Part shown: piece by piece, positions 4,249-21,198 of the stretch | Position numbering within the stretch: the first letter of the stretch is position 1 | How the letters are laid out: every line of letters begins with the position of its first letter | From: an uncultured Staphylococcaceae bacterium | GTDB lineage: Bacteria > Bacillota_I > Bacilli_A > RFN20 > CAG-826 | Assembly (NCBI GenBank): GCA_964433025.1 | Contig: CAYSPV010000003.1 | Span: 1,194 to 65,193 of the forward strand | Reading direction: 5' to 3' | Length of the DNA: 64,000 bases | Notes under the pieces: model-generated | What the model was told of the DNA's origin: nothing | The model's database searches: none | Seen by the model: only the letters and a program-made list of their open reading frames with translations | Translations under genes and position numbers: made by a program

Positions 4249-6894
4249 ATGCTAAGTTTAGTTAATATTAAAAAAGACTACATCATGAGCGATGATACAG
4301 TTCATGCTTTAAAAGGAATAAATATTAATTTTAGACGATCTGAATTTGTCGCTATTTTGGGTCATTCTGGGTGTGGTAAAACTACTCTTTTAAATATTAT
4401 CGGTGGCTTAGATAAATATAGTGATGGTGAACTTATTATTGAAGGAAGATCTACAAAATCATATAAAGCTACAGATTGGGATACATATAGAAACCATTCT
4501 ATTGGTTTTGTATTTCAATCTTATAACCTCATAGGTCATATATCTATTTTAGCTAATGTAGAATTAGCTCTTACCATAAGTGGTGTTTCTAAATCAGAAA
4601 GAAAGAAAAGAGCTTTAAAAGTTTTAGAAGAAGTAGGTTTAAAAGGACAAGAAAAGAAAAAACCTAATCAATTAAGTGGTGGTCAATGTCAAAGAGTGGC
4701 CATAGCCCGTGCTTTAATTAATGATCCTGAAATATTACTCGCAGATGAACCAACAGGGGCACTAGATAGCAATACCTCTGTCCAAATCATGGAATTATTA
4801 AAAGAAATCGCTAAAGATAGATTAGTTATTATGGTTACCCATAATCCTGATTTAGCTAAGAGCTATGCGACAAGAATTGTAAAGATGTCTGATGGTTTAA
4901 TTACTAGTGATTCTAAACCATTTGATGGAAAAGAAGAACAAACTCATGTAAAACAAGAAGAAGCTAAAACTAAATATAGAAAAAATAAATCTGCGATGTC
5001 ATTTAAAACCGCATTAGGATTATCATTTACTAATTTATTATCTAAAAAAGGTAGAACAATATTAATCTCTTTTGCAGGCTCTATAGGCATTATCGGAATA
5101 GCGTTAATATTAAGTCTATCTTATGGATTTAATAATTATATTACTTCTGTCCAAACTAACGCTATGTCAACATATCCTTTAACTATATCAAAAACATCAT
5201 CTCCTAATTTAACTACTTTATTAAGTAGTATGTCATCTTCAAGTGGTGAACAATATCCTGATAGTGATGAAGTAGGAGAATCATCTACGATTACTGATTT
5301 AGTTACAGGATTAGGTAATAGTATCACTACAAGTGATACTCAATCTTTTAAAGCATTTTTAGAGCTTGAAGAAACACAAGAAAAATTAGAACCTTATATA
5401 AGTGGTATTCAATATGTTTATAGCCAATCATTAAACATATATGCTTTAAATGATTATGATGGTACTGAATTAGATACTTTAAGAAGATTATATCCTATTG
5501 ATGAAGATGATTCTTTCTTATATAGTGCGAACACCTACCATGGAGTGGATGGCTATACAATTACTGATCCGACAATGCAAGCAGCCTATAATTATGTCTA
5601 TGATGCAGTGTTAGAAGAAATAATGCCTTTACTTAATTTATATAATGGCTCTGCTTTTGGAGAATTATTAGATAATCAACCATTATTAGAAGAACAATTT
5701 GATGTATTAGAGGGAAGATTTCCAGAAGCGGTTAATGAAGTAGTTATTAAAGTAGATACTTATAATAATATAAGTGATTTATATTTATACTCTATGGGTT
5801 TAAAAGATATGTCCTATATTATGTCTGAATTTGTTTATACCTATGGTAGTTCTACTTTAGAGTCTTGGGGTTTTAGTTTACATGAGCCTGAAAGTGCACC
5901 TGCTTTTGAAGCGACATTTGATGATTTAATGAATCTAGAATTTGCTTTAACTATTAATAGTCAATATTATGAAAAGGTGGAAAATCCTAACTATAATGGC
6001 TCAAATTTAGAATATATTTATCAAGAAGTAGATGATGATACATTAATTGAAACAGTTAAAAATACTTTAAATTTAGAAGTAGTAGGTATTGTAAGACAAA
6101 AAGAAAGTGTAACCACGACATCTTTTAGTGGTGCGATTGGCTATAGTGCTGAATTATATGAATATTTAGTTGAACAAGGTGTTAATCCTAGCGATGAACC
6201 TTTCACTGAAAGTGAAGCTTTAAAATATCAAATGGAAAATCCTGATTATGATATTTTTACAGGCGAATTATTTGCAACAGATAATACCTATTCACAAAAC
6301 CTAACAACGTTAGGTTATGTAGATTTATCATCTCCTGACACTATTTATATTTATCCTGTTAGTTTTGAAGCTAAAGATGAAATATTAGCGATCGTAGAAG
6401 AATATAATAACAACAGTTTATATGATCATAAAGTCTATGTAGAAGATAGTGTAGGTACGATGCTTGATGCCGTACAGACTATTGTAGATGGGGTATCGTA
6501 TGTCTTAATTGCCTTTGTTTCTATATCACTAGTAGTGTCTTCTATTATGATAGGCATTATAACGTATGTATCAGTACTTGAAAGAACGAAAGAAATTGGT
6601 ATATTAAGAGCTATAGGAGCGCGTAAAAAAGACATATCTAGGGTGTTTAATGCTGAAACACTGATAATTGGTTTAACAGCAGGCTTACTTGGTATTGCTG
6701 TAGCAGCCTTACTAGACATTCCAATCATGTTAATTATTAACTCATTAGTTAATATTGGTCTAACAGTTATTATTCCTTGGTATGGAGCAGTTATACTTCC
6801 AATTATATCTATATGTCTAACTATGATTGCAGGGTTGATTCCCGCAAGACTTGCCGCTAAAAAGGACCCAGTAATTGCTTTAAGGAGTGAGTAG
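4249..6894 (+). CDS. MacB-like ABC transporter: a fused ATP-binding domain and FtsX-type permease with a large extracytoplasmic insertion of about 450 aa.
   Basis: Walker A GHSGCGKTT, ABC signature LSGGQCQRVAIARAL and Walker B ILLADEPTGALD are present. The C-terminal FtsX-like 4-TM region follows. RBS is AAGGAGGT. Confidence 0.85.
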   Translation: MLSLVNIKKDYIMSDDTVHALKGININFRRSEFVAILGHSGCGKTTLLNIIGGLDKYSDGELIIEGRSTKSYKATDWDTYRNHSIGFVFQSYNLIGHISILANVELALTISGVSKSERKKRALKVLEEVGLKGQEKKKPNQLSGGQCQRVAIARALINDPEILLADEPTGALDSNTSVQIMELLKEIAKDRLVIMVTHNPDLAKSYATRIVKMSDGLITSDSKPFDGKEEQTHVKQEEAKTKYRKNKSAMSFKTALGLSFTNLLSKKGRTILISFAGSIGIIGIALILSLSYGFNNYITSVQTNAMSTYPLTISKTSSPNLTTLLSSMSSSSGEQYPDSDEVGESSTITDLVTGLGNSITTSDTQSFKAFLELEETQEKLEPYISGIQYVYSQSLNIYALNDYDGTELDTLRRLYPIDEDDSFLYSANTYHGVDGYTITDPTMQAAYNYVYDAVLEEIMPLLNLYNGSAFGELLDNQPLLEEQFDVLEGRFPEAVNEVVIKVDTYNNISDLYLYSMGLKDMSYIMSEFVYTYGSSTLESWGFSLHEPESAPAFEATFDDLMNLEFALTINSQYYEKVENPNYNGSNLEYIYQEVDDDTLIETVKNTLNLEVVGIVRQKESVTTTSFSGAIGYSAELYEYLVEQGVNPSDEPFTESEALKYQMENPDYDIFTGELFATDNTYSQNLTTLGYVDLSSPDTIYIYPVSFEAKDEILAIVEEYNNNSLYDHKVYVEDSVGTMLDAVQTIVDGVSYVLIAFVSISLVVSSIMIGIITYVSVLERTKEIGILRAIGARKKDISRVFNAETLIIGLTAGLLGIAVAALLDIPIMLIINSLVNIGLTVIIPWYGAVILPIISICLTMIAGLIPARLAAKKDPVIALRSE

Positions 6895-7178: not shown

Positions 7179-8470
7179 ATACAGTGGGTTTAATATCTTT
7201 AGGTTGTTGTAAAAATTTAGTGGACTCTGAAATGCTTTTAGGCTACTTTTATGATGCTGGATATAAGATAGTTAATAAACCTGAAGAAGCAGATATTATA
7301 ATTATTAATACTTGTGGATTTATTTTAGATAGTAAAAAAGAATCATTAGCGGCAATCTTTGAAATGGCTAATTACCATAAAAAGATCATCGTAAGTGGAT
7401 GTTTAAGCCAAAGATATTATGATGAATTAAAATCATCTTTAAAAGAAGCTGATTTATTAATTAAAATAGATGATTATGATAATTTAAAAGATATCATAAA
7501 AGAAGTGGACGCTTCTTTTAAAAATGATAAAAACAATGGTTTATCATATTATAGTCGTATATTTGATGATAAAGCTTTTTCAGCTTATTTAAAAATTGGT
7601 GAAGGTTGTTCTAATCATTGTAGTTATTGTGCGATTCCTTTAATAAGAGGAGATTTAAAATCTAGATATAAGCAAGATATTATAAAAGAAGCAAAAATAC
7701 TTGCTAATAAGGGTATAAAAGAACTCGTGGTTATCGCACAAGACACTACTAAATATGGTTTAGATATATATGGAAAAGTAGAAATAGAAAATCTATTAAA
7801 AGAATTATTAAAAATAAAAGAATTTTCTTATATTAGATTATTATATTTATATCCTGATGAGATTAGTGATGAATTAATATCTTTATTTAAAAATGAAGAA
7901 AGATTAACTCCTTATTTTGATATACCTATTCAACATAGTGAAGATAAGATATTAAAGTCTATGAATAGAAGAGGCAATAAGAAGTTTTTATATAATCTTT
8001 TTAATAAAATTAAAAAGGAAGTACCTAACGCTATTCTTAGGACCACCCTTATGGTGGGCTTTCCAGGAGAAACAGAAGAAGATTTTAATAATCTATGTCA
8101 GTTTATTAAAGACATAGAGTTTGATCATTTAGGTGTTTTTACTTTTTCAAAAGAAGAAGATACGAAAGCTTATAATATGAAAAATCAAATAAGAAAAGAT
8201 ATTAAATTAAAAAGAAAAGATGAAATATTAAAAATACAAAGACATATTTCCTATTCAAAAAATAAAAAACATATTAATGAAATAATGAAAGGATTAGTAA
8301 TAGGTAAATCTAAGAATTATTATTTATTAAGAAGCTATTATAACGCTCCTGATGATATAGATGGAAATATATACTTTACAAGTGATGAAATATTAAATAA
8401 TGGTGATATAGTAAATGTTAAAATATCATCTGTATCTGTATATGATCTATATGGTATACACATCAAATAA
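7175..8470 (+). CDS. rimO: Ribosomal protein S12 methylthiotransferase RimO (radical SAM MTTase).
   Basis: N-terminal SLGCCKNLVDSE matches RimO. The radical SAM motif CSNHCSYCAIP and a C-terminal TRAM-like region are present. Confidence 0.8.
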   Translation: MNTVGLISLGCCKNLVDSEMLLGYFYDAGYKIVNKPEEADIIIINTCGFILDSKKESLAAIFEMANYHKKIIVSGCLSQRYYDELKSSLKEADLLIKIDDYDNLKDIIKEVDASFKNDKNNGLSYYSRIFDDKAFSAYLKIGEGCSNHCSYCAIPLIRGDLKSRYKQDIIKEAKILANKGIKELVVIAQDTTKYGLDIYGKVEIENLLKELLKIKEFSYIRLLYLYPDEISDELISLFKNEERLTPYFDIPIQHSEDKILKSMNRRGNKKFLYNLFNKIKKEVPNAILRTTLMVGFPGETEEDFNNLCQFIKDIEFDHLGVFTFSKEEDTKAYNMKNQIRKDIKLKRKDEILKIQRHISYSKNKKHINEIMKGLVIGKSKNYYLLRSYYNAPDDIDGNIYFTSDEILNNGDIVNVKISSVSVYDLYGIHIK

Positions 8471-8477
8471 AATCTTG

Positions 8478-8506
8478 TTGCATTAAGTTCTCAATTATAC
8501 TATATT
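8478..8506 (+). promoter_or_regulatory. Candidate sigma70 promoter for tRNA-Thr: TTGCAT-N17-TATATT.
   Basis: -35 TTGCAT at 8478-8483 and -10 TATATT at 8501-8506, with a 17-nt spacer. The tRNA 5' end is about 11 nt downstream. Confidence 0.45.
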
Positions 8507-8516
8507 TATACGAGAT

Positions 8517-8590
8517 GCCCCATTAGTTAAATGGCATAACGGATCCATGGTAAGGATCTATTCGTAGTTCGATTCTGCGATGGGGCACCA
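8517..8590 (+). tRNA. tRNA-Thr (anticodon GGT), 74 nt with an encoded CCA.
   Basis: Manual cloverleaf: acceptor GCCCCAT/ATGGGGC; D stem GTTA/TAAC; anticodon stem GATCC/GGATC with loop ATGGTAA; T arm CGTAG-TTCGATT-CTGCG; discriminator A plus CCA. Confidence 0.85.
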
Positions 8591-8597
8591 TAAATAA

Positions 8598-8619
8598 GGT
8601 CTTGTAAAAGACTTTTTTT
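8598..8619 (+). terminator. Rho-independent terminator after the tRNA (stem GTCTT / AAGAC, then T7).
   Basis: Hairpin GTCTTgtaaAAGAC followed by TTTTTTT. Confidence 0.55.
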
Positions 8620-8678
8620 GTTGTGTTATGAAGTTCGTTATGTTTCAAAAATAGTGCACCCACATAATAAGACCTTAT

Positions 8679-9653
8679 TTGTTTATAACTTCATGTTATA
8701 ATCAAAACATGAAAAGTAGTGCCACTAAAAGATTTAAAAGTAATCCGTATATTCCTAAATTCATCCTTAAAAATTTTTGTTTTGAAGGTAATAAGATTAA
8801 TTGTTATTCAAAAAAAGAAAATAAAGTCACTATTAAAGATATTGATGAAGCATTTAAAGATTATTTTTTAGAGGCGTTTGATGGATATGATTGGCCTTTG
8901 CTACTTAGTTTAGGGGACGGTATAAAAAAGTATGAAAAAGAGATGTATTCTTTATTTAAAAATAAAATATTAAATAAAAAGAAAAGAATAGTTTTAACAA
9001 AAGCAGAAATTGATAGTATAAAATATTTTTTCGCTTTAATATCGTTTAGAACAAAACTTAATGTAGGTGATTTTTTAGCTTTTTCTAAAGAATCAAAGTC
9101 ATGGTTTACGTGGTGGAGAGATAATGATTACGATGACTATACAGGAGGTTTTTGGCTAAGACATTTAAGTCGAATTTATCAGTGTAGATCGTTAAAAGAA
9201 ATGCTTAATAACGATAAAATTGCTGAACCTTTTAAAGTATATTTCAAATTAAAAACAGAAGGTTTGTTTGGAACTTATCTTTCTTTTATGACGAAATCTT
9301 TTCCAGAAAGTTGTTTTGAATTTTATATAGGTGAAAATTATCCAACTTTTATACCAAGTAAACTAAACCCAGATTTTGTAATATTGGGTATTATTCCTAT
9401 AAGTCCAGAACTTCTTATACTTTTAATTTCAAAAGGCGATGAAAAGAGTCGTGTTTTTGAAGAAGACATTATAAAAGATGCAAAAGATCTATTTATGGAA
9501 CCTACTTATGATGATGACAATGACACTTATATTCACATAATTAAAAATATAAAACATGCATATAATGATTTAATGGCTGAGATTGATATACGCAACGATT
9601 TTAATTATTTTAAAAATCGATATGAGCACATACTTTGGACAGTAAATGAATAA
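8679..9653 (+). CDS. DUF4238-like protein (a defense-island-associated family). The more likely start is the ATG at 8709 (MKSSATKRF...).
   Basis: The N-terminal motif NPYIPKFILKNF resembles the DUF4238 HxVPqFyLrnF signature. The track uses a TTG at 8679. An extended -10 TGTTATAAT (8693-8701) lies 7 nt upstream of ATG 8709, consistent with a leaderless mRNA. Confidence 0.55.
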   Translation: MFITSCYNQNMKSSATKRFKSNPYIPKFILKNFCFEGNKINCYSKKENKVTIKDIDEAFKDYFLEAFDGYDWPLLLSLGDGIKKYEKEMYSLFKNKILNKKKRIVLTKAEIDSIKYFFALISFRTKLNVGDFLAFSKESKSWFTWWRDNDYDDYTGGFWLRHLSRIYQCRSLKEMLNNDKIAEPFKVYFKLKTEGLFGTYLSFMTKSFPESCFEFYIGENYPTFIPSKLNPDFVILGIIPISPELLILLISKGDEKSRVFEEDIIKDAKDLFMEPTYDDDNDTYIHIIKNIKHAYNDLMAEIDIRNDFNYFKNRYEHILWTVNE

Positions 9654-9679
9654 TTATTTCAAATTAATAAATGGTGTTT

Positions 9680-9697
9680 AAAGTCTTATAAGACTTT
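9680..9697. terminator. Perfect 18-bp palindrome AAAGTCTTATAAGACTTT between the convergent DUF4238 and dinJ-like genes (bidirectional terminator).
   Basis: Perfect hairpin flanked by A/T runs, sitting exactly between two convergent stop codons. Confidence 0.55.
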
Positions 9698-9698
9698 C

Positions 9699-9959
9699 TT
9701 ATTTCTTTGCTAATTCTTTATATGCTTCTAGGTTTTCTTCAATTTTTTCTTTTGCAATCTTTTTAACAAGATTATCTGGAAGATATTCTACTGTAGACTT
9801 TTTACGTTTAATTTCAAATGGAACAGCTTGGTCTCTTATAGCTTGTCTAAAAAACATATTAACCGCAGCAGATAATGATAGTCCAAAATCTCCAAATAAT
9901 TCTTCAACTTCATTTTTTAAATCTTTATCTATACGTATTGTGATATTAACATTTCCCAT
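9699..9959 (-). CDS. RelB/DinJ-family (RHH) antitoxin-like protein, 87 aa, with no adjacent toxin gene.
   Basis: MGNVNITIRIDKDLKNEVEELFGDFGLSLSAAVNMFFRQAIRD matches the DinJ/RelB N-terminal RHH. The true start is the internal Met preceded by AAGGAGGG. The track's longer ORF (to 10046) has no RBS. Confidence 0.7.
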   Translation of the reverse strand: MGNVNITIRIDKDLKNEVEELFGDFGLSLSAAVNMFFRQAIRDQAVPFEIKRKKSTVEYLPDNLVKKIAKEKIEENLEAYKELAKK

Positions 9960-10139
9960 AAATTGCCCTCCTTTATACATACAATGTAATACAAATAGTG
10001 GACAAAATAAATATACATAATGTGTATTGTACATATTTTGACACATGGTATTTAAGGAATACCGCTGTGATGAAATATATGCTAATATTTATATAGAGAT
10101 TTATTCTATAAATCTATCTTAGAAAGAATATCATCTATC

Positions 10140-11000
10140 ATGACTAAACAACTAAATCAAAAACTACAAGATTATTTAAATAAAAATGGTTTTAATTTAA
10201 ATTTTGAATTTATCAATTCATATGAAAATGATTATTTTAAAAATACATCATTTACATCTAAATATAGATCATGGAATTTATTAATCTTAACAGGTATAAC
10301 TAAAAGTAATAAATCAGATAATAATAAAGATTATGATATAGATCTTATAAATAAAATAACGAAGTTATTATATGAATCTAATGATGAAGATCTAATTAAT
10401 ATAGCCTGGAATACATTTATTAATTATTGTCATGATGATAATAGATATATTTTATATGCCCCAATGAGTAGGGCATATAATCAATATCAATTAAATAAAG
10501 ATAATATATTTAATAATCACACGAATATATTAGAAACAGATAGATTAATATTAAGACCTAATAATGATAAAGATAATAAGATGTGTATAAACACATCTAA
10601 TCCATCATGTATAAGCTTTAATATCTTTAAAAAAGATAATGATGAATTAATAGGTATATATACATTATCTTATAATGATCTTAATGAAGATTATTTAGAT
10701 ATTAATTATTACTTTAAAGATAAAGAATATATAAAAGAATCTATAGATTTATTAGTGGCCGCTCTTAAAGATAAACAAGTTATATTTTATATAGAAAAAC
10801 ATAAAGACTATATATTTGAAGAATATATGCCTAATCCTATATATCTACGTATAGAAGTTCCTTTTGAAGACGAAGATAGAAATAACATAGCTAAAGCATT
10901 AGGCTTTGACTTAGTGGCCACTAAAACTAATGATAGATATTCTGATGAAGATACAAAATTAGAAACAATTAATACATATTTATTAAAGATAAGAGATTAG
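10140..11000 (+). CDS. Paralog 1 of a 4-member family: unknown N-terminal domain (conserved LLYESxDEDLxNIAWNTF) plus a degenerate GNAT (Acetyltransf_3/RimL-like) domain.
   Basis: LETDRLILRP is the classic Acetyltransf_3 N-terminal strand. C-terminal motifs IGxxxL, YYF and AKALGFDLV follow the GNAT fold. No RxxGxG/A acetyl-CoA motif. Confidence 0.6.
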   Translation: MTKQLNQKLQDYLNKNGFNLNFEFINSYENDYFKNTSFTSKYRSWNLLILTGITKSNKSDNNKDYDIDLINKITKLLYESNDEDLINIAWNTFINYCHDDNRYILYAPMSRAYNQYQLNKDNIFNNHTNILETDRLILRPNNDKDNKMCINTSNPSCISFNIFKKDNDELIGIYTLSYNDLNEDYLDINYYFKDKEYIKESIDLLVAALKDKQVIFYIEKHKDYIFEEYMPNPIYLRIEVPFEDEDRNNIAKALGFDLVATKTNDRYSDEDTKLETINTYLLKIRD

Positions 11001-11096
11001 ATTAAGTATTGAATTTATTTATATAAATATAAATGATTTATATGTTTTTATATTGCCCTTTAAATAGGAAAGGTATATGTAAGGGTCAATAAACCC

Positions 11097-11126
11097 TTGA
11101 AAAAAAAAAAAAAAAAAACGTAGAAT
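11097..11126 (+). promoter_or_regulatory. Promoter of the GmrSD-like gene: TTGAAA -N18- TAGAAT, with the spacer made almost entirely of a 19-nt poly(A) tract (11100-11118).
   Basis: -35 at 11097-11102, -10 at 11121-11126, and SD GTGAGGT before ATG 11158. Preceded by the hairpin AAGGGtcaataaaCCCTT (11081-11097). Confidence 0.5.
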
Positions 11127-11157
11127 TTTTTCTTGTAATATTTAGTGAGGTATAAGC

Positions 11158-12948
11158 ATGGGAAAATTTAGCATTATCAGTAACCCAGTTAGTTTTTTTA
11201 TAAGTAATATTGAAGCTGGAGCTTTAGGACTTCCTGAACTTCAACGTCCTTTTGTATGGGAAGATAAAAAAGCTAGAGATCTATTAAAATCTATGCTAAA
11301 TGGTTTTCCTATTGGCTTTATAATTTTATGGAAACAAGATAGTTCAGTACGAACTAAAAAAGTGAATTTAGAAAGTGGAGGTTATAAAGAACCTAATGAA
11401 GTAATTATTGATGGTCAACAAAGATTAACCTCTCTATATTCAATAATTAAAAATCGTGAAATATTTGATAAAAATTACAAAAAAAGAAAAATCATTATTT
11501 CATATAATCCTAATAATGATGAATTAGAAGTTGGCTCAGCGGCACATAAACAATCTCCAGATTGGATTTATAATATATCCGATATTTTTATAAATGATTC
11601 TTATGATGTATGGAATGCATATGTAAAAAGAAAAATAGAATCACTAGAAAGAAATGGTGAAATCATAACTGAAGAATATAAAGAACAATTAAAAAAGAAA
11701 ATATCCGCTAAGATAACTAATTTTAAAAAAACAATTCTTGATTATGATTTACCATATTTACAAATATATAATGATGTCGATGAAGAAGATGTGGCAAATA
11801 TATTTGTAAATATTAATTCTGGTGGCACTAAATTAAATCAATCAGATTTTATATTAACTCTTGTTTCTGTTCATTATCCTGACGGTAGAACACTAATTGA
11901 AAAATTTTGTAGTGATATGACTAAACATTTAGAAGATGAAAGAGAAGATATTTGTAATCCATTATTTAAATTTGAACCCGCTGATATTATAAGAATAGTG
12001 ATGGCGCTTGGATTTAAAAGAGGACGTTTAGTGTATGGCTATAAATTATTAAGAGGCGCGGATTTTGAAAAAAGAGGCGTTATTGATGAAGAATTAAGAA
12101 ATGAAAGATTTAAGGTTTTTGAACAAACATTAAACAAAGTATTAGATCGTAATAATTTTAAAGAATTTTTAAAATGTATTTATAAAAGCGGATTTGCTCA
12201 TAAAGATCTTCTTAGATCAAGAATAAATATTGTATATGCCTATGCTTTTTGGTTAATTGGAAAATATGATTTTAATATCGATATTTCTACTTTAAGTAAG
12301 ACTATAGCAAAATCATTTTATTTCTTTAATTTAACTTCTAGATATAGTGGTTCATTTGAAAGTTTATTTGAAAGTGAATTAAAAAAATTAGATATAGCAG
12401 ATAAAACAAGTGAATCATTTATAGAAATATTAGAAGAAGGACAAAAATTTAAATTAACTGATGATTTCTTTAATATTGAGCTAATTGGAATATTAAAAAA
12501 TACAGGTACATATTCTAGTGAATATAATACATATTACGCTGCTCAAAATATTTTAGAAGCTAAAGTATTATTTTCCAATCCTCAAATAAGTACACTAACA
12601 GCCTATACCCAACCTTTAAGTGGTAATAGAAAAGCAGTGGAATCACATCATTTATTTCCTAAAAATTATCTACATAATTTAGGATATAGAGAAGTTAATA
12701 TAAAAGATTTAGCAAATAGAGCTCTTGTTGAATGGTCAGATAATATGAAAGCCGAAGATAAAGCACCTAAAGATTATTATCCTGAATTTATTAAAAATAT
12801 GACTGAAGATGAAATAAAAAACATGCTTGATCTTAATGCATTACCTGATAATTGGTATGAAATGGAATATCTTGAATTTTTAGATGAAAGAAGAAAACTA
12901 ATAGCCCAAATAATTCGTAGAGGCTATGAAAAATTAAAAAAAGTTTAA
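11158..12948 (+). CDS. GmrSD-family type IV (modification-dependent) restriction endonuclease: N-terminal DUF262 (ParB-like NTPase) plus C-terminal DUF1524 (His-Me finger).
   Basis: DUF262 motifs LPELQRPFVWE and DGQQRLTSL are present. The C-terminal HHLFPKNYL...VEWSDN matches the DUF1524 HNH-like motif. Length is 596 aa. Confidence 0.8.
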   Translation: MGKFSIISNPVSFFISNIEAGALGLPELQRPFVWEDKKARDLLKSMLNGFPIGFIILWKQDSSVRTKKVNLESGGYKEPNEVIIDGQQRLTSLYSIIKNREIFDKNYKKRKIIISYNPNNDELEVGSAAHKQSPDWIYNISDIFINDSYDVWNAYVKRKIESLERNGEIITEEYKEQLKKKISAKITNFKKTILDYDLPYLQIYNDVDEEDVANIFVNINSGGTKLNQSDFILTLVSVHYPDGRTLIEKFCSDMTKHLEDEREDICNPLFKFEPADIIRIVMALGFKRGRLVYGYKLLRGADFEKRGVIDEELRNERFKVFEQTLNKVLDRNNFKEFLKCIYKSGFAHKDLLRSRINIVYAYAFWLIGKYDFNIDISTLSKTIAKSFYFFNLTSRYSGSFESLFESELKKLDIADKTSESFIEILEEGQKFKLTDDFFNIELIGILKNTGTYSSEYNTYYAAQNILEAKVLFSNPQISTLTAYTQPLSGNRKAVESHHLFPKNYLHNLGYREVNIKDLANRALVEWSDNMKAEDKAPKDYYPEFIKNMTEDEIKNMLDLNALPDNWYEMEYLEFLDERRKLIAQIIRRGYEKLKKV

Positions 12949-13062
12949 ATAATAATTATTTAAAGTAATAAACATATAAAGAAATAAAATCTACACAAAA
13001 TAGATCGTTTTAATAATGTCCAATAAACGGTACATGGTGGTTGAGGACCCCTAATAGTGGCG

Positions 13063-13092
13063 TTGACATAAAAAAAAAAAAAAAAGTATTAT
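13063..13092 (+). promoter_or_regulatory. Promoter of paralog 2: TTGACA -N18- TATTAT, with the spacer dominated by a 16-nt poly(A) tract (13070-13085).
   Basis: Perfect -35 at 13063-68 and -10 at 13087-92. The TAATAGTGG box lies immediately upstream. SD AAGGAGGT precedes ATG 13194. Confidence 0.5.
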
Positions 13093-13193
13093 AAACGCGA
13101 TGACATTTCTAGGTAGGAAATTTACATCTTAAGAAGAACAATTGATTTGTTTTTTGATTGAATAAATCAATAGACCAAGGAGGTACTCGGATT

Positions 13194-14153
13194 ATGTTAA
13201 CTGCTGATTTATTTTTAAAACTTAAGGAGTGCTTAAACGAAGAAAAAGTGGATTTTGGATTATATCCTTTTAATCTTCGTTTTGAGGATAATAAAAATCT
13301 TTCTTGGACTGGTAAATATGTATCATTAAACTTACTAGTGCTTACTGGTATTGCTAAATATAATCTATATCTTTTTAATGAGAAAAGTACAAAAATAGAA
13401 GACTATGATATAGATCTTATAAATCAAATCACTAAGTTATTATATGAATCTGGTGATGAAGATTTAAAAAATATAGCCTGGAATACCTTTTTTGAAGATT
13501 GTCAAGATGATGAAAGATTTATTCTTTATAAGGAAATAAATGCTGCTTTAGATGAAAAAGATGAACTATATGAAAAAGGAATAAATTTTAATCATACCAA
13601 AGAATTAGAAACTGAAAATTTGTTAATAAGACCTCAAAGAACTGAAGATAGTGAAATAATAGCAGATGATTTTATTGAATACGACCTTTTCAACATCCAC
13701 CATACAAGCATAGTTTCTACTTGTGATGAAACATGTTGTAGTTTTAATTTATTTTTAAAATCTAGCAATGATTTAATAGGTGCAATAGCGTTTGATTTCG
13801 GTGAAGATCAACTTGATGACAAAATGATGGATGTACATTACTACTTAATGGAAAAATATAAAAATAATATTGAGTATTTAAAAGAAGGATTGCAAGCAAT
13901 AATTAACGCTTTTAGGGAAAGAAAAGTAGTGTTATATTGTGAAAAACATAAAAAGGCAGTGTTTGAAGAATGGATACCAAACCCTGAATTTTTAGCTATA
14001 GAATGTAAAGATGATGACACTAATAGTAATGAAATAGCTAAATACTTAGGATTTGAATTTACTGGTGGTGATACTGAATTCGTATTTTGGGATGATAAAG
14101 ACGACCTAAGAACAAATAAAACAAACATATATCTATTAAAGGTAAATAAATAA
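13194..14153 (+). CDS. Paralog 2: unknown N-terminal domain plus degenerate GNAT domain. The track's ORF starts at 13158, but the RBS supports a start at 13194 (MLTADLFLKLKECL).
   Basis: Shares the N-terminal MLTxxLxxKLxxxL, the LLYESGDEDLKNIAWNTF block, LETENLLIRP and a C-terminal LGFEF with its paralogs. Confidence 0.6.
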   Translation: MLTADLFLKLKECLNEEKVDFGLYPFNLRFEDNKNLSWTGKYVSLNLLVLTGIAKYNLYLFNEKSTKIEDYDIDLINQITKLLYESGDEDLKNIAWNTFFEDCQDDERFILYKEINAALDEKDELYEKGINFNHTKELETENLLIRPQRTEDSEIIADDFIEYDLFNIHHTSIVSTCDETCCSFNLFLKSSNDLIGAIAFDFGEDQLDDKMMDVHYYLMEKYKNNIEYLKEGLQAIINAFRERKVVLYCEKHKKAVFEEWIPNPEFLAIECKDDDTNSNEIAKYLGFEFTGGDTEFVFWDDKDDLRTNKTNIYLLKVNK

Positions 14154-14237
14154 AAATCTTTAATAGTGCTTTAATTTATAAAGAAAGGAACTATACACTA
14201 TGCTAACATATGAATTACTTGAAAAACTTGAAAAATA
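14151..14237 (+). repeat. Direct repeat copy A. Covers the intergenic end and the first 38 nt of paralog 3. Copy B is 15121-15206.
   Basis: TAAAAA(T/A)CTTTAATAGTGC ... AGAAAGGAACTATACACTATGCTAACATATGAATTACTTGAAAAACTTGAAAA is near-identical in both copies. Repeat period is about 970 bp. Confidence 0.7.
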
Positions 14238-15123
14238 TTTAAGAAGGAAAAAAATAATAACAAATGCGTTTTTTAGTATTAATTATTCTACATCTGAAGG
14301 ATACTGGCTACATACATATGAGTCATGGGAATTATTAGCACTTACTGGGATGGCTAAGTATGCAGTTACACCCGATATTACTCCTAATGATGAAGATATT
14401 GAGTTAGCAAATAAAATCGTAAAATTATTATATGAATCTGGTGATGAAGATTTAAAAAATATTGCTTGGACTACATTTGCTCATTATGGAATTTGGGATG
14501 AAAGGTTTGTTCTTTGTAAGGAAATAACTACAGCTTGTCATAAAAAGGGTTATAAGAAAAATTGTAATCGCACTAAAGATATAGGAACAGATAATTTAAT
14601 AATAAGACGTCAAAATGCTAATGATGCTGAAAAAATTAAAGAAGATTCTGAAAATTGTGGTTCATTTATAGATTTCTTCAAATACTCTTCTGTGAGTGAT
14701 GAAACAGAGATTTGTTTTAGTTTATTTTTAAAAACTAATAATGAACTAATAGGTGCATTAGGATTTGACTTCGGTCCTTATCCAAGTGGTGATAAAGCAA
14801 CTATACATTACTATTTATTGGAAAAATATAAAGATAATGTCGAATATATAAAAGAAGCCTTACAAGCAATAATAAACACTATAAAAGAAAGAAAATTTAT
14901 AATCTATGTACAAAAACATAGATATTTTATCTATGAAGAATACGCACCAGATGTCCAATATTTATTAATTGAAAGTATAGGAGATTCTAGTATTGTTTAT
15001 GATAAATTAGCTAAATATTTAGGGTTTGAATTTGTTGGTGCTAGACTTGATGATTATCTTTTATATGGTCTAGATGAAAAAGATAAAACTAATGTATATG
15101 TATTAAAAATAAAAAATAAATAA
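14200..15123 (+). CDS. Paralog 3: unknown N-terminal domain plus degenerate GNAT domain.
   Basis: MLTYELLEKLEKYL; LLYESGDEDLKNIAWTTF; LIIRRQ; LGFEFVG. RBS is AAAGGAA. Confidence 0.6.
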   Translation: MLTYELLEKLEKYLRRKKIITNAFFSINYSTSEGYWLHTYESWELLALTGMAKYAVTPDITPNDEDIELANKIVKLLYESGDEDLKNIAWTTFAHYGIWDERFVLCKEITTACHKKGYKKNCNRTKDIGTDNLIIRRQNANDAEKIKEDSENCGSFIDFFKYSSVSDETEICFSLFLKTNNELIGALGFDFGPYPSGDKATIHYYLLEKYKDNVEYIKEALQAIINTIKERKFIIYVQKHRYFIYEEYAPDVQYLLIESIGDSSIVYDKLAKYLGFEFVGARLDDYLLYGLDEKDKTNVYVLKIKNK

Positions 15124-15206
15124 AAAACTTTAATAGTGCAAAAAATATTAAGAAAGGAACTATACACTATGCTAACATATGAATTACTTGAAAAACTTGA
15201 AAATTA
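15121..15206 (+). repeat. Direct repeat copy B (5' end of paralog 4 and its upstream region).
   Basis: See copy A. Identical stretches are 14181-14237 and 15150-15206. Confidence 0.7.
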
Positions 15207-16110
15207 TCTAAAAAGTAAAGGATTGAATTATGAATTTAATTCTTACAATTACGAGGATAAAAGTTTTTTCTCTGGGAGAACATGGACTGACAAATATGTG
15301 TCTTGGAATTTGTTGATACTTACTGATATTATTAAAAACAATATATTAAATTCTGATGGCTCACAATCTCCAATATATAATATTGAATTAATAAATAAAA
15401 TCACTAAGTTGTTGTATGAATCAGGCGATGAGGATTTAAAAAATATAGCCTGGAATACTTTTTTTGACCTGTCGGATGATGAAAGATTTATTCTCCATGA
15501 GGAAATGAACTCTGCTTTTAATAAATGGCTTTTCGAACCAAGGGTTACCAATCACACTGATAAATTAGAGACGCCTAATTTAATAATAAAAGCAAATAAT
15601 AAAGAAGATTCCAAAAAATTAAAAGCTTATATAGATAAATATGATTCTGAGAATAAAAGACCATACTATAGAATGATTCGTGACTATGATGCCAACACAA
15701 ATCTCTGTTTTAATTTATTTTTAAAATCTAGTAATAAAATAATCGGTTTTATTGTTTTATATTTTGAAAAATATCCTAATGAAGAAAAAGCATATTTAGA
15801 TTTTTATTTAAAGAAAAAATATCAAAACAAAATAGACTATTTAAAAGAGGCTTTGACAGAAATAATAAAAGCTTTAAATGAAAGAAAAGTCATGTTTTAT
15901 TGCTATAAACACAAACGATATGTACTTGAAGAATGGATTCCTAATATAAAGGTTTTGTTTATAGAAGATGTTAATAGTGCTTCTGGTGAAGTAGCTAAAG
16001 CGACAGGCTTTGAATTTATTGGGACAAACTCTATTTTTGTATTAGACGAAAAATATGACGGTTTTCTTCATGAAATATGTGATATATACGCTTTAAAACT
16101 AAAAGATTAA
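15169..16110 (+). CDS. Paralog 4: unknown N-terminal domain plus degenerate GNAT domain. The track ORF starts at 15136, but the real start is 15169 (its 5' end is identical to paralog 3).
   Basis: MLTYELLEKLENYL; LLYESGDEDLKNIAWNTF; LETPNLIIK; TGFEFIG. Confidence 0.6.
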   Translation: MLTYELLEKLENYLKSKGLNYEFNSYNYEDKSFFSGRTWTDKYVSWNLLILTDIIKNNILNSDGSQSPIYNIELINKITKLLYESGDEDLKNIAWNTFFDLSDDERFILHEEMNSAFNKWLFEPRVTNHTDKLETPNLIIKANNKEDSKKLKAYIDKYDSENKRPYYRMIRDYDANTNLCFNLFLKSSNKIIGFIVLYFEKYPNEEKAYLDFYLKKKYQNKIDYLKEALTEIIKALNERKVMFYCYKHKRYVLEEWIPNIKVLFIEDVNSASGEVAKATGFEFIGTNSIFVLDEKYDGFLHEICDIYALKLKD

Positions 16111-16177
16111 TAAATCTATTAAGAATAATAATATAAGCAGACCAAAAAAAATCATTTAAACAAAGGAGACTAATAAT

Positions 16178-17971
16178 ATGGAAGTAGATAATCAATACAT
16201 AGTTTCAGAATTACAAGCAAGGCAAACTGACACCGCAGCTATTAAAAGAAATGACGAAGCTAAAAAAATAAGAGATGAATTTAGATCTAAATTTGGCCCT
16301 GATGTTTTGAAAAACATTAAAGAAGATGAGGTTATTGCAAAGTTGTTTTCAAAAGAAACTGTAAACCGAGACAGCTTGTTTCATTATCTCGAATACAACA
16401 AAAACAACAATCAAGTATTTGGAGGAATAGCTGGCGGTAATGATAGAAAATGCATTTGTAAATATGATAGAAATAGCAAGACATGGGTTTTTTATGAAAG
16501 TAGTGGGCAAAAAGAAATATCTGAAGATGGCGCAATTAAATACAGCATGGAGATAATAGATACATTAATAAAATCTTGCGAAATAGTAGATAAACATTAC
16601 AGCAACAATGAAATTGATTATTCAAGTTTATATGAAGAATTTGAAAAAGAATTTGCTAATAATGATATTGGTAAAATCGTCATAAAACAACTATGGTTTA
16701 TGAAATATCTCAATATGCTATATCCTAATTTATTAGTTAGTTGGTATAACGAATATATGTTAGATCAACCTATTAAGTACTTGGAAATTTCAGATGGAAA
16801 TATCGATATAACTAGTGAATACAAAAGAAGATTTATTAAAAATGGATCTATCGCAAATTTTTGTAGAAATCATAGTATTTCAACTGATATTTTCTATTAC
16901 CTAATGCAGTGGGAACGAATCCCAGGCGTGAGAATAAAAACAAAAAAAGAAGGAAATAAAGAAATGGAGGATAATATTCAAAAAGCTACTACAAATAACA
17001 ACGAAACACCAATTAATAAAGAAAAAGCTAAAGGCGAAAACCTTATCGTCTATGGTGTCCCTGGTGTAGGTAAAAGCCATTATGTAGATGAAGAATACAA
17101 ATTAAAAGGTGTAAATAAAAATTTCTTTGAAAGAGTAGTGTTCCATCCTGACTACACCTATTCAGATTTTGTAGGACAAATTATGCCTAATGTGGATGAA
17201 AATGGCAAACTAACTTATAAATTTGAACCAGGACCATTTACACGTATTTTAGCAAGAGCAATAAATGATACAGAAAATAAGTATTATCTAGTTATTGAAG
17301 AAATCAACAGGGGTAATGCTGCGGCAATATTTGGTGATATATTCCAATTATTAGATAGAGAAAAAGATGGTACAGGTAGATATGATATAACAAATAAAGA
17401 TATCGCTAAAGAAGTTTATGGTTCTAGTGATAGTAATAAAAAAATACGTATACCATCTAATTTAAGTATTATTGCTACGATGAATACATCTGATCAAAAT
17501 GTATATACATTAGATACTGCATTTCAAAGAAGATGGAAAATGCATTTAATTCCTAATAAGTTTAAAGAAGATAAAACTGATAAAAATTATATCGGAAATG
17601 TCGAATTATTCGATAGTGGTATTACCTGGAGAGAATTCTGTGAAAAAGTTAATAAAAAAATATTAGATAATAATTCTTCATATATCTCTACAGAAGACAA
17701 ACGTTTAGGTATTCATTTTGTAAGTAGAGAAGAAATTGAAAAGACTGAAGCTAAACAAGCTTTTGCAGAAAAAGTCTTAAAATATCTATGGGATGACGCT
17801 TTTAAAAATAATAGAGAAGAATTATTTAATAAGAACTGCGAATCTTTAGAAGATGTCATAGATAAATTTAAAGATAGTAAAGATAATGGATTTGCTGCTG
17901 TATTAAATATTGAGTTTAATGACGTAAACAATGAAAGCAGTGATAATACCACAAATGAAGAATCAAATTAG
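16178..17971 (+). CDS. McrB-like AAA+ GTPase of a McrBC-type type IV restriction system, with an unrecognised N-terminal domain of about 290 aa.
   Basis: Walker A YGVPGVGKSH. McrB signatures IEEINRGNAAAIFGDIFQLLDRE and IIATMNTSDQNVYTLDTAFQRRW are present. RBS is AAAGGAG. Confidence 0.85.
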   Translation: MEVDNQYIVSELQARQTDTAAIKRNDEAKKIRDEFRSKFGPDVLKNIKEDEVIAKLFSKETVNRDSLFHYLEYNKNNNQVFGGIAGGNDRKCICKYDRNSKTWVFYESSGQKEISEDGAIKYSMEIIDTLIKSCEIVDKHYSNNEIDYSSLYEEFEKEFANNDIGKIVIKQLWFMKYLNMLYPNLLVSWYNEYMLDQPIKYLEISDGNIDITSEYKRRFIKNGSIANFCRNHSISTDIFYYLMQWERIPGVRIKTKKEGNKEMEDNIQKATTNNNETPINKEKAKGENLIVYGVPGVGKSHYVDEEYKLKGVNKNFFERVVFHPDYTYSDFVGQIMPNVDENGKLTYKFEPGPFTRILARAINDTENKYYLVIEEINRGNAAAIFGDIFQLLDREKDGTGRYDITNKDIAKEVYGSSDSNKKIRIPSNLSIIATMNTSDQNVYTLDTAFQRRWKMHLIPNKFKEDKTDKNYIGNVELFDSGITWREFCEKVNKKILDNNSSYISTEDKRLGIHFVSREEIEKTEAKQAFAEKVLKYLWDDAFKNNREELFNKNCESLEDVIDKFKDSKDNGFAAVLNIEFNDVNNESSDNTTNEESN

Positions 17972-19178
17972 AATAGAAAAAGATTTAGATTATGTTGGTT
18001 TAAAGAGTGACGATAAAGAATTTATCTTCGCTTTTCCTTATGGTTATAATTTTGGAAATAAAGAAGATCGTATACTAAATAAAGAAGATTATATATTAAG
18101 AAAAGATATTAAGAAGATAATGTCTGTTATTCGTAAATGTAAGAAGGCTAATCCTCTTAGTATAAACGGATCTGAAGATGATAATGATAATCTACCTTTT
18201 GAGGATTATATTTATTTAATTGAGTATTATTTACAGCATAATAGATGTTATTACATGGAAAAAGAAATATCTTATCGTAATGATACAAGAGGTAAGATAG
18301 ATTGGTCTAAAACTATTAAAAGAAATAAACCTTATATACAAGACGATGAAATCGTCTATTTAAAACAAACTATTAGAGAAAGTAAGTTATTAGATAATAC
18401 TTTAATTACAGAATTACATAAATACTGTACGATTGAATCTATTAATAAATTAGGTTTTTTATATGGTGTAGAAACCAAAGATAAAAGTAGTTTAAAAATA
18501 GATGAAAAGAACAAGAACATGTATATTCAAATCATACATAAATACATGTCTAAGACTCATGATAATAATAAGATTAGACTATTCAGTGCGATGATTAATG
18601 TTATAAACAACATCGATACTAAAGATAAATCAGTTAATTATTACACTGAAGAGTTTCGTACTGTATGGGAGTATATGATCGATAATGTCTATGGTATTAA
18701 GAATAAGAATGAGTATTATCCTCATGGTAAATATAAAGGTAAAGAAGAAAAAAAGATTGACGAAGATGAAAAAGAACAAAAAGAAAAACAAAAGACCGCT
18801 TTAAGACCTGATAGTATTATGAAATTAAATAATGAATATTATGTTTTAGATGCTAAATATTATAAAGAAGGTAATTTACCTAATTCATCTGATATAAACA
18901 AGCAAATTACTTATGCTGAAAAAGTAAAATATAAAGAAGAATTAGATGATCTTTATAATGCATTTATATTACCTTATGATGGCAAAGGTGTTGATAACAT
19001 TAAATTTGATACATACGGATATGGTGATTGGTATAAATTAAATAAAAACTATCATCGTGTAGCGGTCATCTATATGGACACTAAATATCTTTTGGATATT
19101 TATAATAAAACTAGTGAGAAGATAAAACATCAAAAAGATTTAGCTAAAGAAATTCAAAAAATACAAGAGGCAAAATGA
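17931..19178 (+). CDS. McrC-like nuclease subunit (PD-D/ExK). It overlaps the McrB gene by 41 nt.
   Basis: C-terminal LRPDSIMKLNNEYYVLDAKYYKEG matches the McrC PD...D-x-K core. Position and coupling to McrB fit. Confidence 0.7.
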   Translation: MKAVIIPQMKNQIRIEKDLDYVGLKSDDKEFIFAFPYGYNFGNKEDRILNKEDYILRKDIKKIMSVIRKCKKANPLSINGSEDDNDNLPFEDYIYLIEYYLQHNRCYYMEKEISYRNDTRGKIDWSKTIKRNKPYIQDDEIVYLKQTIRESKLLDNTLITELHKYCTIESINKLGFLYGVETKDKSSLKIDEKNKNMYIQIIHKYMSKTHDNNKIRLFSAMINVINNIDTKDKSVNYYTEEFRTVWEYMIDNVYGIKNKNEYYPHGKYKGKEEKKIDEDEKEQKEKQKTALRPDSIMKLNNEYYVLDAKYYKEGNLPNSSDINKQITYAEKVKYKEELDDLYNAFILPYDGKGVDNIKFDTYGYGDWYKLNKNYHRVAVIYMDTKYLLDIYNKTSEKIKHQKDLAKEIQKIQEAK

Positions 19179-19300
19179 TCCATATAATAGCTATTTTCAT
19201 TAAATTTTTAGGAAAATTGATACACTTTCTTGGCAAAATGAACACTATTTTTATAAAAATATAAAAAAATATGTTTTTATTATTAAAATAATTAAAATTC

Positions 19301-20503
19301 GTGTGTATAATAATTTCTATGAATTCAATTAAACGCGTAAACGGAATGAAAGTAATTAAGAAATGGAATTTAGGTCTATTCATTTCACTTATATTAATGA
19401 TACTTGCTGTTGGTGGTACAATAGCCCTTTTATATTTACTTCCAATTACAGTATTCTCATATCCTAATCAAGATAGTACTTATGAAGTATATGCTTCTGA
19501 TTTTATATTCTTCGCTGCTCAAGATTGGTTAGGTACAGATAATATTAATGATGCATTCTTTAGATTTAAAAATTATGGTTTAGATGTCTTAATACCTTCT
19601 GATTTAAATAGCATTGTATTTGTTATTATATACGCTATTGCGGGACTTTTAGCAGTAGTAGGTGTATTTGCTGTTATATGTGTAATCATATTCTTATGTG
19701 GTTTATTATTTGGGGTTATTAAAGGCAATTGGAAAGCTATGAAAGTAATGACATGGCTAGTATTTGCTTTTATGTTTATAGTAGCCTTAATATTTGCCGC
19801 TTTAAAGCTATGCTTTATGTATATGCTTACTGAATATGGTGTTGTTTATTATGATATGGATATTTGGAATCTTGTTTATATAGTAGCAGGTCTATTAGTG
19901 TTTGGTATTATCCAATCTATCGTGTACTCTATATGCTTTAAAGATCGTATTTATATTAAAGACGCTAAACGTATATTAGAAGCTCAAAAACAAAGACAAG
20001 AAATGATGCAACAACAAATGTATCCTCAAGGCTTTGCTATGCCAATGCCTATGGTTATGAATGCTCCTAATTATCAAATGGCGCCTACTCAAAATCAAGT
20101 AACACCAACCCAAACTCAACCAATTAAAACTAATCCTACTGTAGTTACTCAAGTTAAATATTCTGCAGGTAAAGGTTTACCTGAACAAATATCTTCTATT
20201 GGTGGACATGCGTTTAGTCAAAACGCTAATCTTGAAGTGGCTATTATTCCTTTAGGAATAAAAGAAATAGGACCATCAGCGTTTTCTAACTGTCCTAATT
20301 TAAAAGTTGTCTCTATTCCTACATCGGTAATTAAGATTGGTTATAATGCTTTCTTTGGCTGTAAGAAATTAGCTAGAATTAATTATGGTGGACGTAAAAA
20401 TGAATGGAAAAACATTACTAGAGGTTCAAATTGGCTCGCTAGTAGCGGTACTTCCGTAGTAGTGTGTGTTGATGGCGCAATCACTGTTAATCCTTATCAT
20501 TAA
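19301..20503 (+). CDS. Polytopic membrane protein with a P/Q/M-rich linker and C-terminal BspA-type leucine-rich repeats (LRR_5). The real start is probably 19346 (MKVIKK), because a TGTGTATAAT -10 ends at 19300.
   Basis: N-terminal TM helices are followed by repeated units such as IPLGIKEIGPSAFSNCPNLKVVSIPTSVIKIGYNAFFGCKKL. Confidence 0.6.
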   Translation: MCIIISMNSIKRVNGMKVIKKWNLGLFISLILMILAVGGTIALLYLLPITVFSYPNQDSTYEVYASDFIFFAAQDWLGTDNINDAFFRFKNYGLDVLIPSDLNSIVFVIIYAIAGLLAVVGVFAVICVIIFLCGLLFGVIKGNWKAMKVMTWLVFAFMFIVALIFAALKLCFMYMLTEYGVVYYDMDIWNLVYIVAGLLVFGIIQSIVYSICFKDRIYIKDAKRILEAQKQRQEMMQQQMYPQGFAMPMPMVMNAPNYQMAPTQNQVTPTQTQPIKTNPTVVTQVKYSAGKGLPEQISSIGGHAFSQNANLEVAIIPLGIKEIGPSAFSNCPNLKVVSIPTSVIKIGYNAFFGCKKLARINYGGRKNEWKNITRGSNWLASSGTSVVVCVDGAITVNPYH

Positions 20504-20508
20504 TAATA

Positions 20509-21198
20509 ATGAATATTGTTATATTACTATGTGCAGGTAGGGGAAATAGATTATCCCTAGATATTGATAAATGTTTTATAAAAGTAGACAAATTATATTT
20601 ATATGAATATAGTTTAAATACTTTTTTTTCTTTAAAAGAAATAGATAAGATAATTTTAGTGTCCTCTTTAGAATCCTTACATCTAATTAATCTAAAACCA
20701 TATAAAGATAAAGTAGAAGTAATAATAGGTGGTAATACTAGACAAGAAAGCATTTTTAATGCTTTAAATTATTTATATGAAAATAAATTAGTAAAAGATA
20801 ATGATAATATCTTAATTCATGATGGGGCTAGACCTTTAATATCTAAAGATATTATCATTAATAATATTAAAGCTTTAAATAATCATGATTTTAATATTAC
20901 CTATATAAGAAATATTGATACATCATTTTTTATTAAAGATGATAAATTAGATAATTTAATTAATAGAGATGAAGTAGTGTTTGAACAAACACCTACCTCA
21001 TCTAAATTTAAATTATTATATGACTTACATAAAAAAGCTTTAAAAGATAATTTATATGATATACATGATGATGCTACATTAGCTTTACTTTATAAAAAAG
21101 ATGTCTATTTAGTAGAAGGATCTAAATTAAATTTTAAGATTACTTATTTAAAAGATATAGATTTGCTTAAATATTATCTAACTTTGTTAGATAAATAA
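20509..21198 (+). CDS. IspD/TarI-family cytidylyltransferase.
   Basis: N-terminal IVILLCAGRGNRL nucleotidyltransferase glycine-rich loop; about 229 aa. Confidence 0.55.
   Translation: MNIVILLCAGRGNRLSLDIDKCFIKVDKLYLYEYSLNTFFSLKEIDKIILVSSLESLHLINLKPYKDKVEVIIGGNTRQESIFNALNYLYENKLVKDNDNILIHDGARPLISKDIIINNIKALNNHDFNITYIRNIDTSFFIKDDKLDNLINRDEVVFEQTPTSSKFKLLYDLHKKALKDNLYDIHDDATLALLYKKDVYLVEGSKLNFKITYLKDIDLLKYYLTLLDK

Follow-up and report, generated by a model that had tools for sequence, protein, structure and literature searches.

A poly(A) promoter spacer as a candidate phase-variation switch ahead of GNAT-fusion genes in a chromosomal defence island

The stretch of DNA analysed here (the window, 64,000 nt in total) has a GC content of 27.2% and is chromosomal; it carries NusA, IF-2, IspD and a MiaB-like gene. 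A tRNA-Thr gene is directly followed by a ~10.5 kb block of defence-type genes, which we refer to as the island. The features of this region are as follows.

8517-8590: tRNA-Thr gene, directly before the defence-type block
8679-9653: DUF4238 protein
9699-10046, minus strand: RelB/RHH protein, with the open reading frame listed at 115 aa
10140-11000, plus strand: paralog 1 of the GNAT-fusion family, 286 aa, upstream of tract 1
11097-11126, plus strand: predicted sister promoter TTGAAA-N18-TAGAAT with A19 (tract 1) at 11100-11118, ahead of the GmrSD-family gene, 10/12 to consensus
11158-12948, plus strand: GmrSD-family (DUF262 N-domain) type IV restriction-like gene, between the two tracts
13063-13068, plus strand: -35 hexamer TTGACA, 6/6 to consensus
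13070-13085, plus strand: poly(A)16 tract (tract 2), which together with T13069 and G13086 makes up the entire 18-bp spacer
13087-13092, plus strand: -10 hexamer TATTAT, 5/6 to consensus, without a TG extension
13099-13193, plus strand: predicted 5' untranslated leader of ~95 nt, its start site placed from the hexamers
13177-13184, plus strand: Shine-Dalgarno sequence AAGGAGGT, 9 nt ahead of ATG 13194
13194-14153, plus strand: paralog 2, 319 aa, N-terminal helical domain and C-terminal GNAT fold
14177-14250, plus strand: 74-nt junction repeat, 93% identical to 15146-15219, taking in the start region (ribosome-binding site plus initial codons) of paralogs 3 and 4
14200-15123, plus strand: paralog 3, 307 aa, missing from a related allele
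15169-16110, plus strand: paralog 4, 313 aa, above the cut-off for Pfam Acetyltransf_3
16178-17971, plus strand: McrB-like AAA_5 GTPase/ATPase
17931-19178, plus strand: LlaJI-type restriction endonuclease subunit, overlapping the McrB-like gene

The RelB/RHH open reading frame is probably shorter than listed, i.e. ~87 aa, as a good ribosome-binding site (AAGGAGGG) precedes ATG 9960; no obvious partner toxin gene adjoins it.

The gene between the two tracts had originally been labelled GmrSD. The GmrSD type IV class is defined by an N-terminal DUF262 domain together with a C-terminal DUF1524 His-Me nuclease domain, and the label rests on the N-terminal part, which matches GmrSD_N (DUF262) in Pfam with an E-value of 1.2e-30; for the C-terminal part, Pfam gave no GmrSD_C (DUF1524) match even at E-values up to 5. 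An ESHHLFPKN...N motif is visible in this C-terminal part, and the best match of the protein in PADLOC is HEC-05.

The four GNAT-fusion paralogs are 41-48% identical to each other, and their N-terminal region is very conserved. Against Pfam PF13302 (Acetyltransf_3), paralog 4 scored 26.2 bits (cut-off 25.4) while paralog 2 remained below the threshold with 17.4 bits. An AlphaFold2 model of paralog 2 (pLDDT 83.5, pTM 0.81) has a helical N-terminal domain of ~130 residues, for which no Pfam match was obtained, followed by ~190 C-terminal residues that Foldseek aligned to RimL/RimJ/SpeG-type GNATs (3fbu, 1s7l and others) with a probability of 1.0 and an E-value of 3e-9. As judged from this model, the genes predicted to be under the control of tract 2 encode GNAT-fold proteins. 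Of 22 homologues, 21 carry HR-x-x-[G/R]Y-x-KEA at the acetyl-CoA loop. Each of the four window paralogs departs from this, with YKNNIEY, YKDNVEY, YQNKIDY or a deletion in its place (residues ~218-232 of paralog 2), and GNAT motif A, i.e. the R/Q-x-x-G-x-G/A pyrophosphate-binding loop, was not recovered in them. Because motif A is altered in all four, the catalytic competence of the window paralogs is uncertain; judging by these motifs, they may not be ordinary acetyltransferases and may be catalytically changed or inactive. Thus, the window family resembles the RimL/RimJ/SpeG GNATs (PF13302) in the C-terminal fold of paralog 2 and in the Pfam score of paralog 4, but differs from them by the extra conserved N-terminal helical domain, by the altered R-x-x-G-x-A loop and by its setting in defence islands.

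The GNAT-fusion family is rare: a word-indexed search returned 29 proteins, and a full HMM scan of 1.84 billion sequences returned 23 representative clusters at E-values of at most 1e-30. Its members are consistently found within defence islands (window 10140-16110 as well as the related loci L009-L016 and L003) and elsewhere adjoin genes for type I restriction-modification (RM), T5orf172/MUG113, PDDEXK_4, a Schlafen-like helicase, MazG-like proteins and LEM-3 GIY-YIG proteins. None of the PADLOC models matches the GNAT-fusion paralogs. We propose the family as a candidate undescribed defence gene.

Upstream of paralog 2, tract 2 accounts for 16 of the 18 bases between the two hexamers of a predicted promoter, and its length lies well above the ~8 nt that served as the threshold for a slippage-prone homopolymer. 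The original prediction had placed TTGACA at 13063-13068 and TATTAT at 13087-13092 with a spacing of N18, all of which was borne out on reading the sequence. It had also given the spacer as TA plus A16 plus G; this part did not hold, the true spacer being T plus A16 plus G, with one A having been counted twice. In a consensus scan (promoter calls here being consensus matches only), this site scored 11/12 and was the top promoter-like match in 8400-20600, i.e. in the 12-kb island; in the full window, four sites on both strands (128 kb of scanned strand), this one included, reached at least 11/12 to the sigma-70 consensus. Between tract 2 and ATG 13194, the plus strand offered no better match. 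The mechanically called open reading frame of paralog 2 begins at TTG 13158, upstream of ATG 13194. Translation from ATG 13194 gives an N terminus (MLTADLFLKLKE) that can be aligned with the MLTYELLEKLE at the start of paralogs 3 and 4; we therefore take ATG 13194 as the real start. A strong Shine-Dalgarno sequence precedes this codon at 13177-13184. Finally, the predicted leader (~13099-13193) had no Rfam match and its fold was no better than those of shuffled sequences; for these reasons, a riboswitch or leader RNA was dropped as a candidate.

On the plus strand, no terminator-like site was predicted from the stop codon of the GmrSD-family gene to 19406. An operon of paralogs 2, 3 and 4 is plausible from this arrangement and, as no terminator precedes 19406, the McrB-like and LlaJI-like genes may share its transcript. 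Moreover, because no terminator follows the GmrSD-family gene, read-through from the A19 promoter may enter the paralog operon and could blunt any switch.

Both tracts are bracketed by good hexamers and both precede a gene with a good ribosome-binding site, while the sequences around tract 1 and tract 2 are unrelated. This recurrence bears on the possibility that A16 is an UP-like or curvature element for a weaker promoter further downstream, consisting of ATGACA (13100-13105), a 17-bp spacer and TACATC. ATGACA matches the -35 consensus at 5/6 positions, and A-tracts that lie ahead of a -35 element are able to raise transcription. However, the candidate -10 hexamer (TACATC/TTACAT) matches at only 3/6 positions and is absent among the listed scan matches, and the tract would sit at ~-50 to -65, i.e. 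mostly beyond the usual UP position. Moreover, an UP-like role leaves the exact bracketing by TTGACA and TATTAT, which is repeated at tract 1, unexplained. We consider such a role very improbable.

Homopolymers of at least 9 nt, of any base, occur only twice in the 64 kb, i.e. as A19 at 11100-11118 and A16 at 13070-13085. The counts of A/T runs drop by a factor of x0.31 per extra base, and extrapolation gives ~5 runs of at least 9 nt and ~0.0015 runs of at least 16 nt. The window contains no A/T run of 9-15 nt and two of at least 16 nt, so that the distribution leaps from 8 to 16 and 19. Because no other run exceeds 8 nt although ~5 of at least 9 nt are expected, long runs seem to be avoided except at the two promoters. 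Tandem Repeats Finder detected no other notable simple repeat in the window. In the consensus scan, promoter-like sites were overall fewer than in shuffled sequences (75 vs 97.5), which counts against the promoter reading. In a placement test, A16 was inserted into the actual window sequence in steps of three positions, and a promoter of at least 11/12 with the tract as spacer arose at 2.3e-4 of the sites; for A19, the same test gave a promoter of at least 10/12 with the tract as spacer at 3.7e-3 of the sites. Similarly, in ~150 kb of related loci, many of which have a GC content of 25-30%, the orthologue of tract 1 is the sole A/T run of at least 9 nt and, thus, long A-runs are no compositional habit of these genomes. 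In total, we conclude that the two bracketed outlier tracts are not a compositional accident. This agrees with the original prediction, in which the two longest homopolymers of the window were said to lie in the island and to form -35/-10 spacers, as the run count upholds, and in which a compositional accident was deemed unlikely, as the run-length expectation, the promoter scan and the placement test all support.

A related allele of tract 1 is present in a contig of a metagenome-assembled genome labelled 'uncultured Eubacteriales bacterium' (L002, 26.1% GC), which is 96.2% identical to window 10083-12256. Over the 2,174 aligned positions, the two sequences differ by 77 substitutions and by only two indel events, one of which lies in tract 1. 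Where the window has TTG-A19-CG, L002 has TTG-C-A16-CG, giving a spacer of 16 bp in L002 vs 18 bp in the window (net 2 nt), both as read from metagenome assemblies, in which the length of a 16-19-nt homopolymer, when called from short reads, can be wrong by one or two bases. The flanking promoter sequence with its -10 hexamer, the leader and the start codon are identical. As assembled, tract 1 is length-polymorphic between the two alleles, as a slippage-prone tract should look, and this lends indirect support to phase variation at tract 2.

The same comparison bears on whether the poly(A) tracts are low-complexity joins or errors in a metagenome-assembled contig. The source appears to be a metagenome-type contig and short-read homopolymer lengths are error-prone; however, tract 1 recurs at the same place in the independent assembly L002, and the coding sequence on either side is intact and syntenic. 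Moreover, the 16- and 19-nt tracts are shorter than the usual assembler k-mers, so that unique flanks should anchor them, and an artefact would not fall between perfect promoter hexamers. We regard an assembly or sequencing artefact as scarcely credible.

Alternatively, the promoter could be weak and constitutive, and the A-tract in it an unusually AT-rich and rigid spacer or a low-complexity run subject to drift, whose length would change over evolutionary time and would not act as a switch. In line with this, the homologous genes elsewhere lack tracts, and the spacers known here are all off-optimal (18 bp for both promoters of the window and 16 bp in L002), a 17-bp allele not being seen among them. 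Off-optimum spacers fit the 'off' or 'low' state of a switch and, equally, a weak static promoter. Against a static promoter, slippage makes any homopolymer as long as 16-19 nt inherently hypermutable, the window has no other run above 8 nt despite the expectation given above, and the tract 1 indel is one of only two in 2.2 kb between alleles. We therefore consider a static promoter unlikely.

The homology between L002 and the window sets in sharply at window 10083, a short way ahead of paralog 1. In the part of L002 that corresponds to window 8600-10082 (L002 1-5788), an HsdS fragment is present along with another GmrSD-family gene and a DUF4238 gene that differs from that of the window, and the RelB-like gene is missing. 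As far as these sequences tell, the island is mosaic between relatives.

A small hairpin abuts the 5' side of each tract, with its 3' arm overlapping the -35 hexamer (window 11082-11099 and 13016-13069); it reads AAGGGT-CAATAA-ACCCTT before A19 and ATGTC...GACAT before A16. The folds do not go beyond those of shuffled sequences (z -1.4 and -1.6). A terminator reading of the hairpins was rejected since, on the plus strand, A's rather than U's follow, on the minus strand, T's precede, and the folds are insignificant. Similarly, a poly-lysine leader peptide was rejected since no convincing ribosome-binding site precedes the small frames that cross the tracts (...DIKKKKKVL* and LKKKKKKT*) and since the L002 allele, with its 2-nt difference, would be read in another frame.

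These hairpins are, together with the mosaic structure of the island and the position of the tracts on either side of the GmrSD-family gene, which breaks the paralog array, in line with a different origin, i.e. that the tracts are scars at cassette junctions, either the ends of inserted cassettes, such as a GmrSD cassette that entered an array of GNAT paralogs, or RNA-copied 3' ends consisting of a hairpin plus poly(A), and that the hexamers are incidental. However, the hairpins fold no better than shuffles and have no U-runs after them, the flanks of the two tracts are unrelated, and the island encodes no reverse transcriptase, integrase or transposase. Moreover, the L002 homology is colinear through tract 1, and chance bracketing by hexamers has a frequency of ~2e-4 for A16 and 4e-3 for A19. 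Cassette scars are, in our view, quite improbable.

The L002 contig stops within the GmrSD gene, before tract 2, and a search of other assemblies for orthologous sequence or reads over 13070-13085 returned none. Exact-protein look-ups of paralog 2, the GmrSD gene, the MiaB-like flank gene, P0001 and paralog 1 gave no record; searches of plasmid and phage DNA gave no matches; and family scans of genome, metagenome and viral collections gave, besides L002, only distant GNAT homologues without tracts. The closest GmrSD homologues are just 56% identical (30% GC) and have no tract upstream, and the distant homologues of the GNAT family similarly have no upstream tract. Because these distant GmrSD and GNAT homologues lack tracts, the tract architecture is young or lineage-restricted.

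Other simple repeats were observed at the related loci. A gene with a SEFIR/TIR domain that adjoins a GmrSD homologue is full-length in L008 (482 aa; A7, ~5069-5075) but is split into 206 + 284 aa in L007 by a 1-nt longer run (A8, 5066-5073), so that either this defence gene carries a homopolymer frameshift or the sequence contains an error. L010, a contig of 27% GC, carries a G11 run (2195-2205) that precedes a minus-strand collagen-like gene by ~65 nt, in an island that also holds a GNAT-family homologue; this G11 run is another candidate simple-repeat switch.

A second related allele, in a Logan contig (L005, SRR7039263; positions 1-1546), aligns to window 13752-14153 plus 15124-16266, i.e. 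the C-terminal part of paralog 2 is joined straight to paralog 4, and paralog 3 is gone. Paralog 4 is matched in full and paralog 2 over its C-terminal part, both at 100% identity. The junction in L005 lies within the 74-nt repeat, which is likely the recombination substrate for the deletion of paralog 3. Given this allele, the paralog array appears recombinationally plastic, and the alignment suggests that its copy number varies by homologous recombination.

We favour, as moderately probable, that tract 2 is a contingency promoter, i.e. a slipped-strand promoter-spacer phase or rheostat switch. The activity of this promoter, its start site, the instability of tract 2 itself, the effect of tract length on expression and the extent of the operon are all predicted from the DNA sequence. 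A16 would be the spacer of a housekeeping-sigma (sigma-70/SigA-type) promoter from which paralogs 2 to 4 of the GNAT-fusion family, and possibly also the McrB-like and LlaJI-like genes, would be transcribed. Slipped-strand mispairing at replication would cause daughter cells to gain or lose A's, and each A would alter how far apart the two hexamers lie and turn them relative to each other by ~35 degrees. An A15 tract would give the optimal 17-bp spacer and high expression, the present A16 tract with its 18-bp spacer would give reduced expression, and tracts of A17 or longer, or of A13 or shorter, would be essentially off. A population would, as a consequence, always be mixed in the expression of the defence-island genes, and this mixture would be a form of bet-hedging, weighing protection against what the genes cost the cell or how toxic they are. 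The GmrSD-family gene would be switched in like manner by the A19 promoter, which lies 2 kb upstream.

Simple-repeat phase variation is known mostly from pathogens, and there mostly for surface antigens and methylase-containing RM systems. A close likeness to the proposed switch is found in the vlp genes of Mycoplasma hyorhinis, for which PMC10502178, in its account of the work of Citti & Wise 1995, describes a poly(A) tract in the promoter region, in which single-A slippage indels toggle each gene, and several such promoters that adjoin in one locus and switch separately. The TA repeats of Vmm (same source) are a further example of the promoter-spacer class of simple-repeat phase variation. 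The window shares with vlp the long A-run within a predicted promoter and the presence of several such predicted promoters in one locus. However, the products of the vlp genes are surface lipoproteins, and their host is a Mollicute that has no cell wall and reads genetic code 4, whereas code 11 applies to the window, the label of its closest relative is Eubacteriales, its genes encode cytoplasmic defence-island enzymes with no sequence relationship to vlp, and its switch is predicted from sequence.

In Neisseria meningitidis, porA, opc and fetA have poly-G or poly-C runs between -35 and -10, and tract length sets promoter strength stepwise, as a rheostat, via the geometry of sigma-factor binding (PMC2791445 and references 10, 11, 14 and 15 therein). 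There, as in the predicted promoter of the window, a homopolymer is part of the -35/-10 spacer; the Neisseria tracts are, however, G/C runs of ~9-14 nt ahead of outer-membrane protein genes in a Gram-negative pathogen, whereas A16 makes up nearly the whole spacer and its predicted targets are restriction or defence genes.

Phase-variable RM is known for type I and type III systems and for phasevarions (PMC11868660) as well as for a type IIG system of Campylobacter jejuni (PMC8713573). Because loci of this kind are a class in which phase variation is known (PMC11868660), the position of the tracts in a defence island supports the switch reading. In these RM systems, simple repeats make a DNA-targeting defence stochastic in a clonal population, as they would in the window. 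In phase-variable RM, the repeat usually lies in the coding sequence, where it acts as an on/off frameshift, and a methyltransferase is involved; by contrast, the repeat of the window lies in the predicted promoter, no methylase is encoded, and the gene products are GNAT-fold proteins and nucleases of a modification-dependent (type IV-like) kind. We found no case of a phase-variable GmrSD in the literature, and did not find promoter simple-repeat control of modification-dependent restriction described there. In Bacteroides, defence genes are known to be controlled by promoter inversion. Promoter-spacer poly(A) switching is itself already known, and, as read from the sequence, its setting in an island of anti-virus genes would be new.

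More tentatively, and as a possibility that we hold with clear reservation, the island as a whole could be a combinatorial phase-variable defence module of a low-GC gut Firmicute, in which two independent poly(A) switches would gate a GmrSD-family type IV enzyme and a rare GNAT-fusion array, perhaps together with the McrBC/LlaJI-like system, and in which the GNAT-fusion family would be an undescribed anti-phage or anti-MGE family with recombination-driven copy number.

If tract 2 is a switch, phase variation would extend to an uncultured, very AT-rich commensal-type Firmicute, and to type IV-like nucleases and a rare uncharacterised GNAT-fusion family of defence islands, which is flagged here as a candidate defence gene. 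It would also support that costly or self-toxic defence genes are held as a stochastic on/off mixture. Moreover, a long A-run that exactly fills the -35/-10 spacer would provide a signature for searches of metagenomes.
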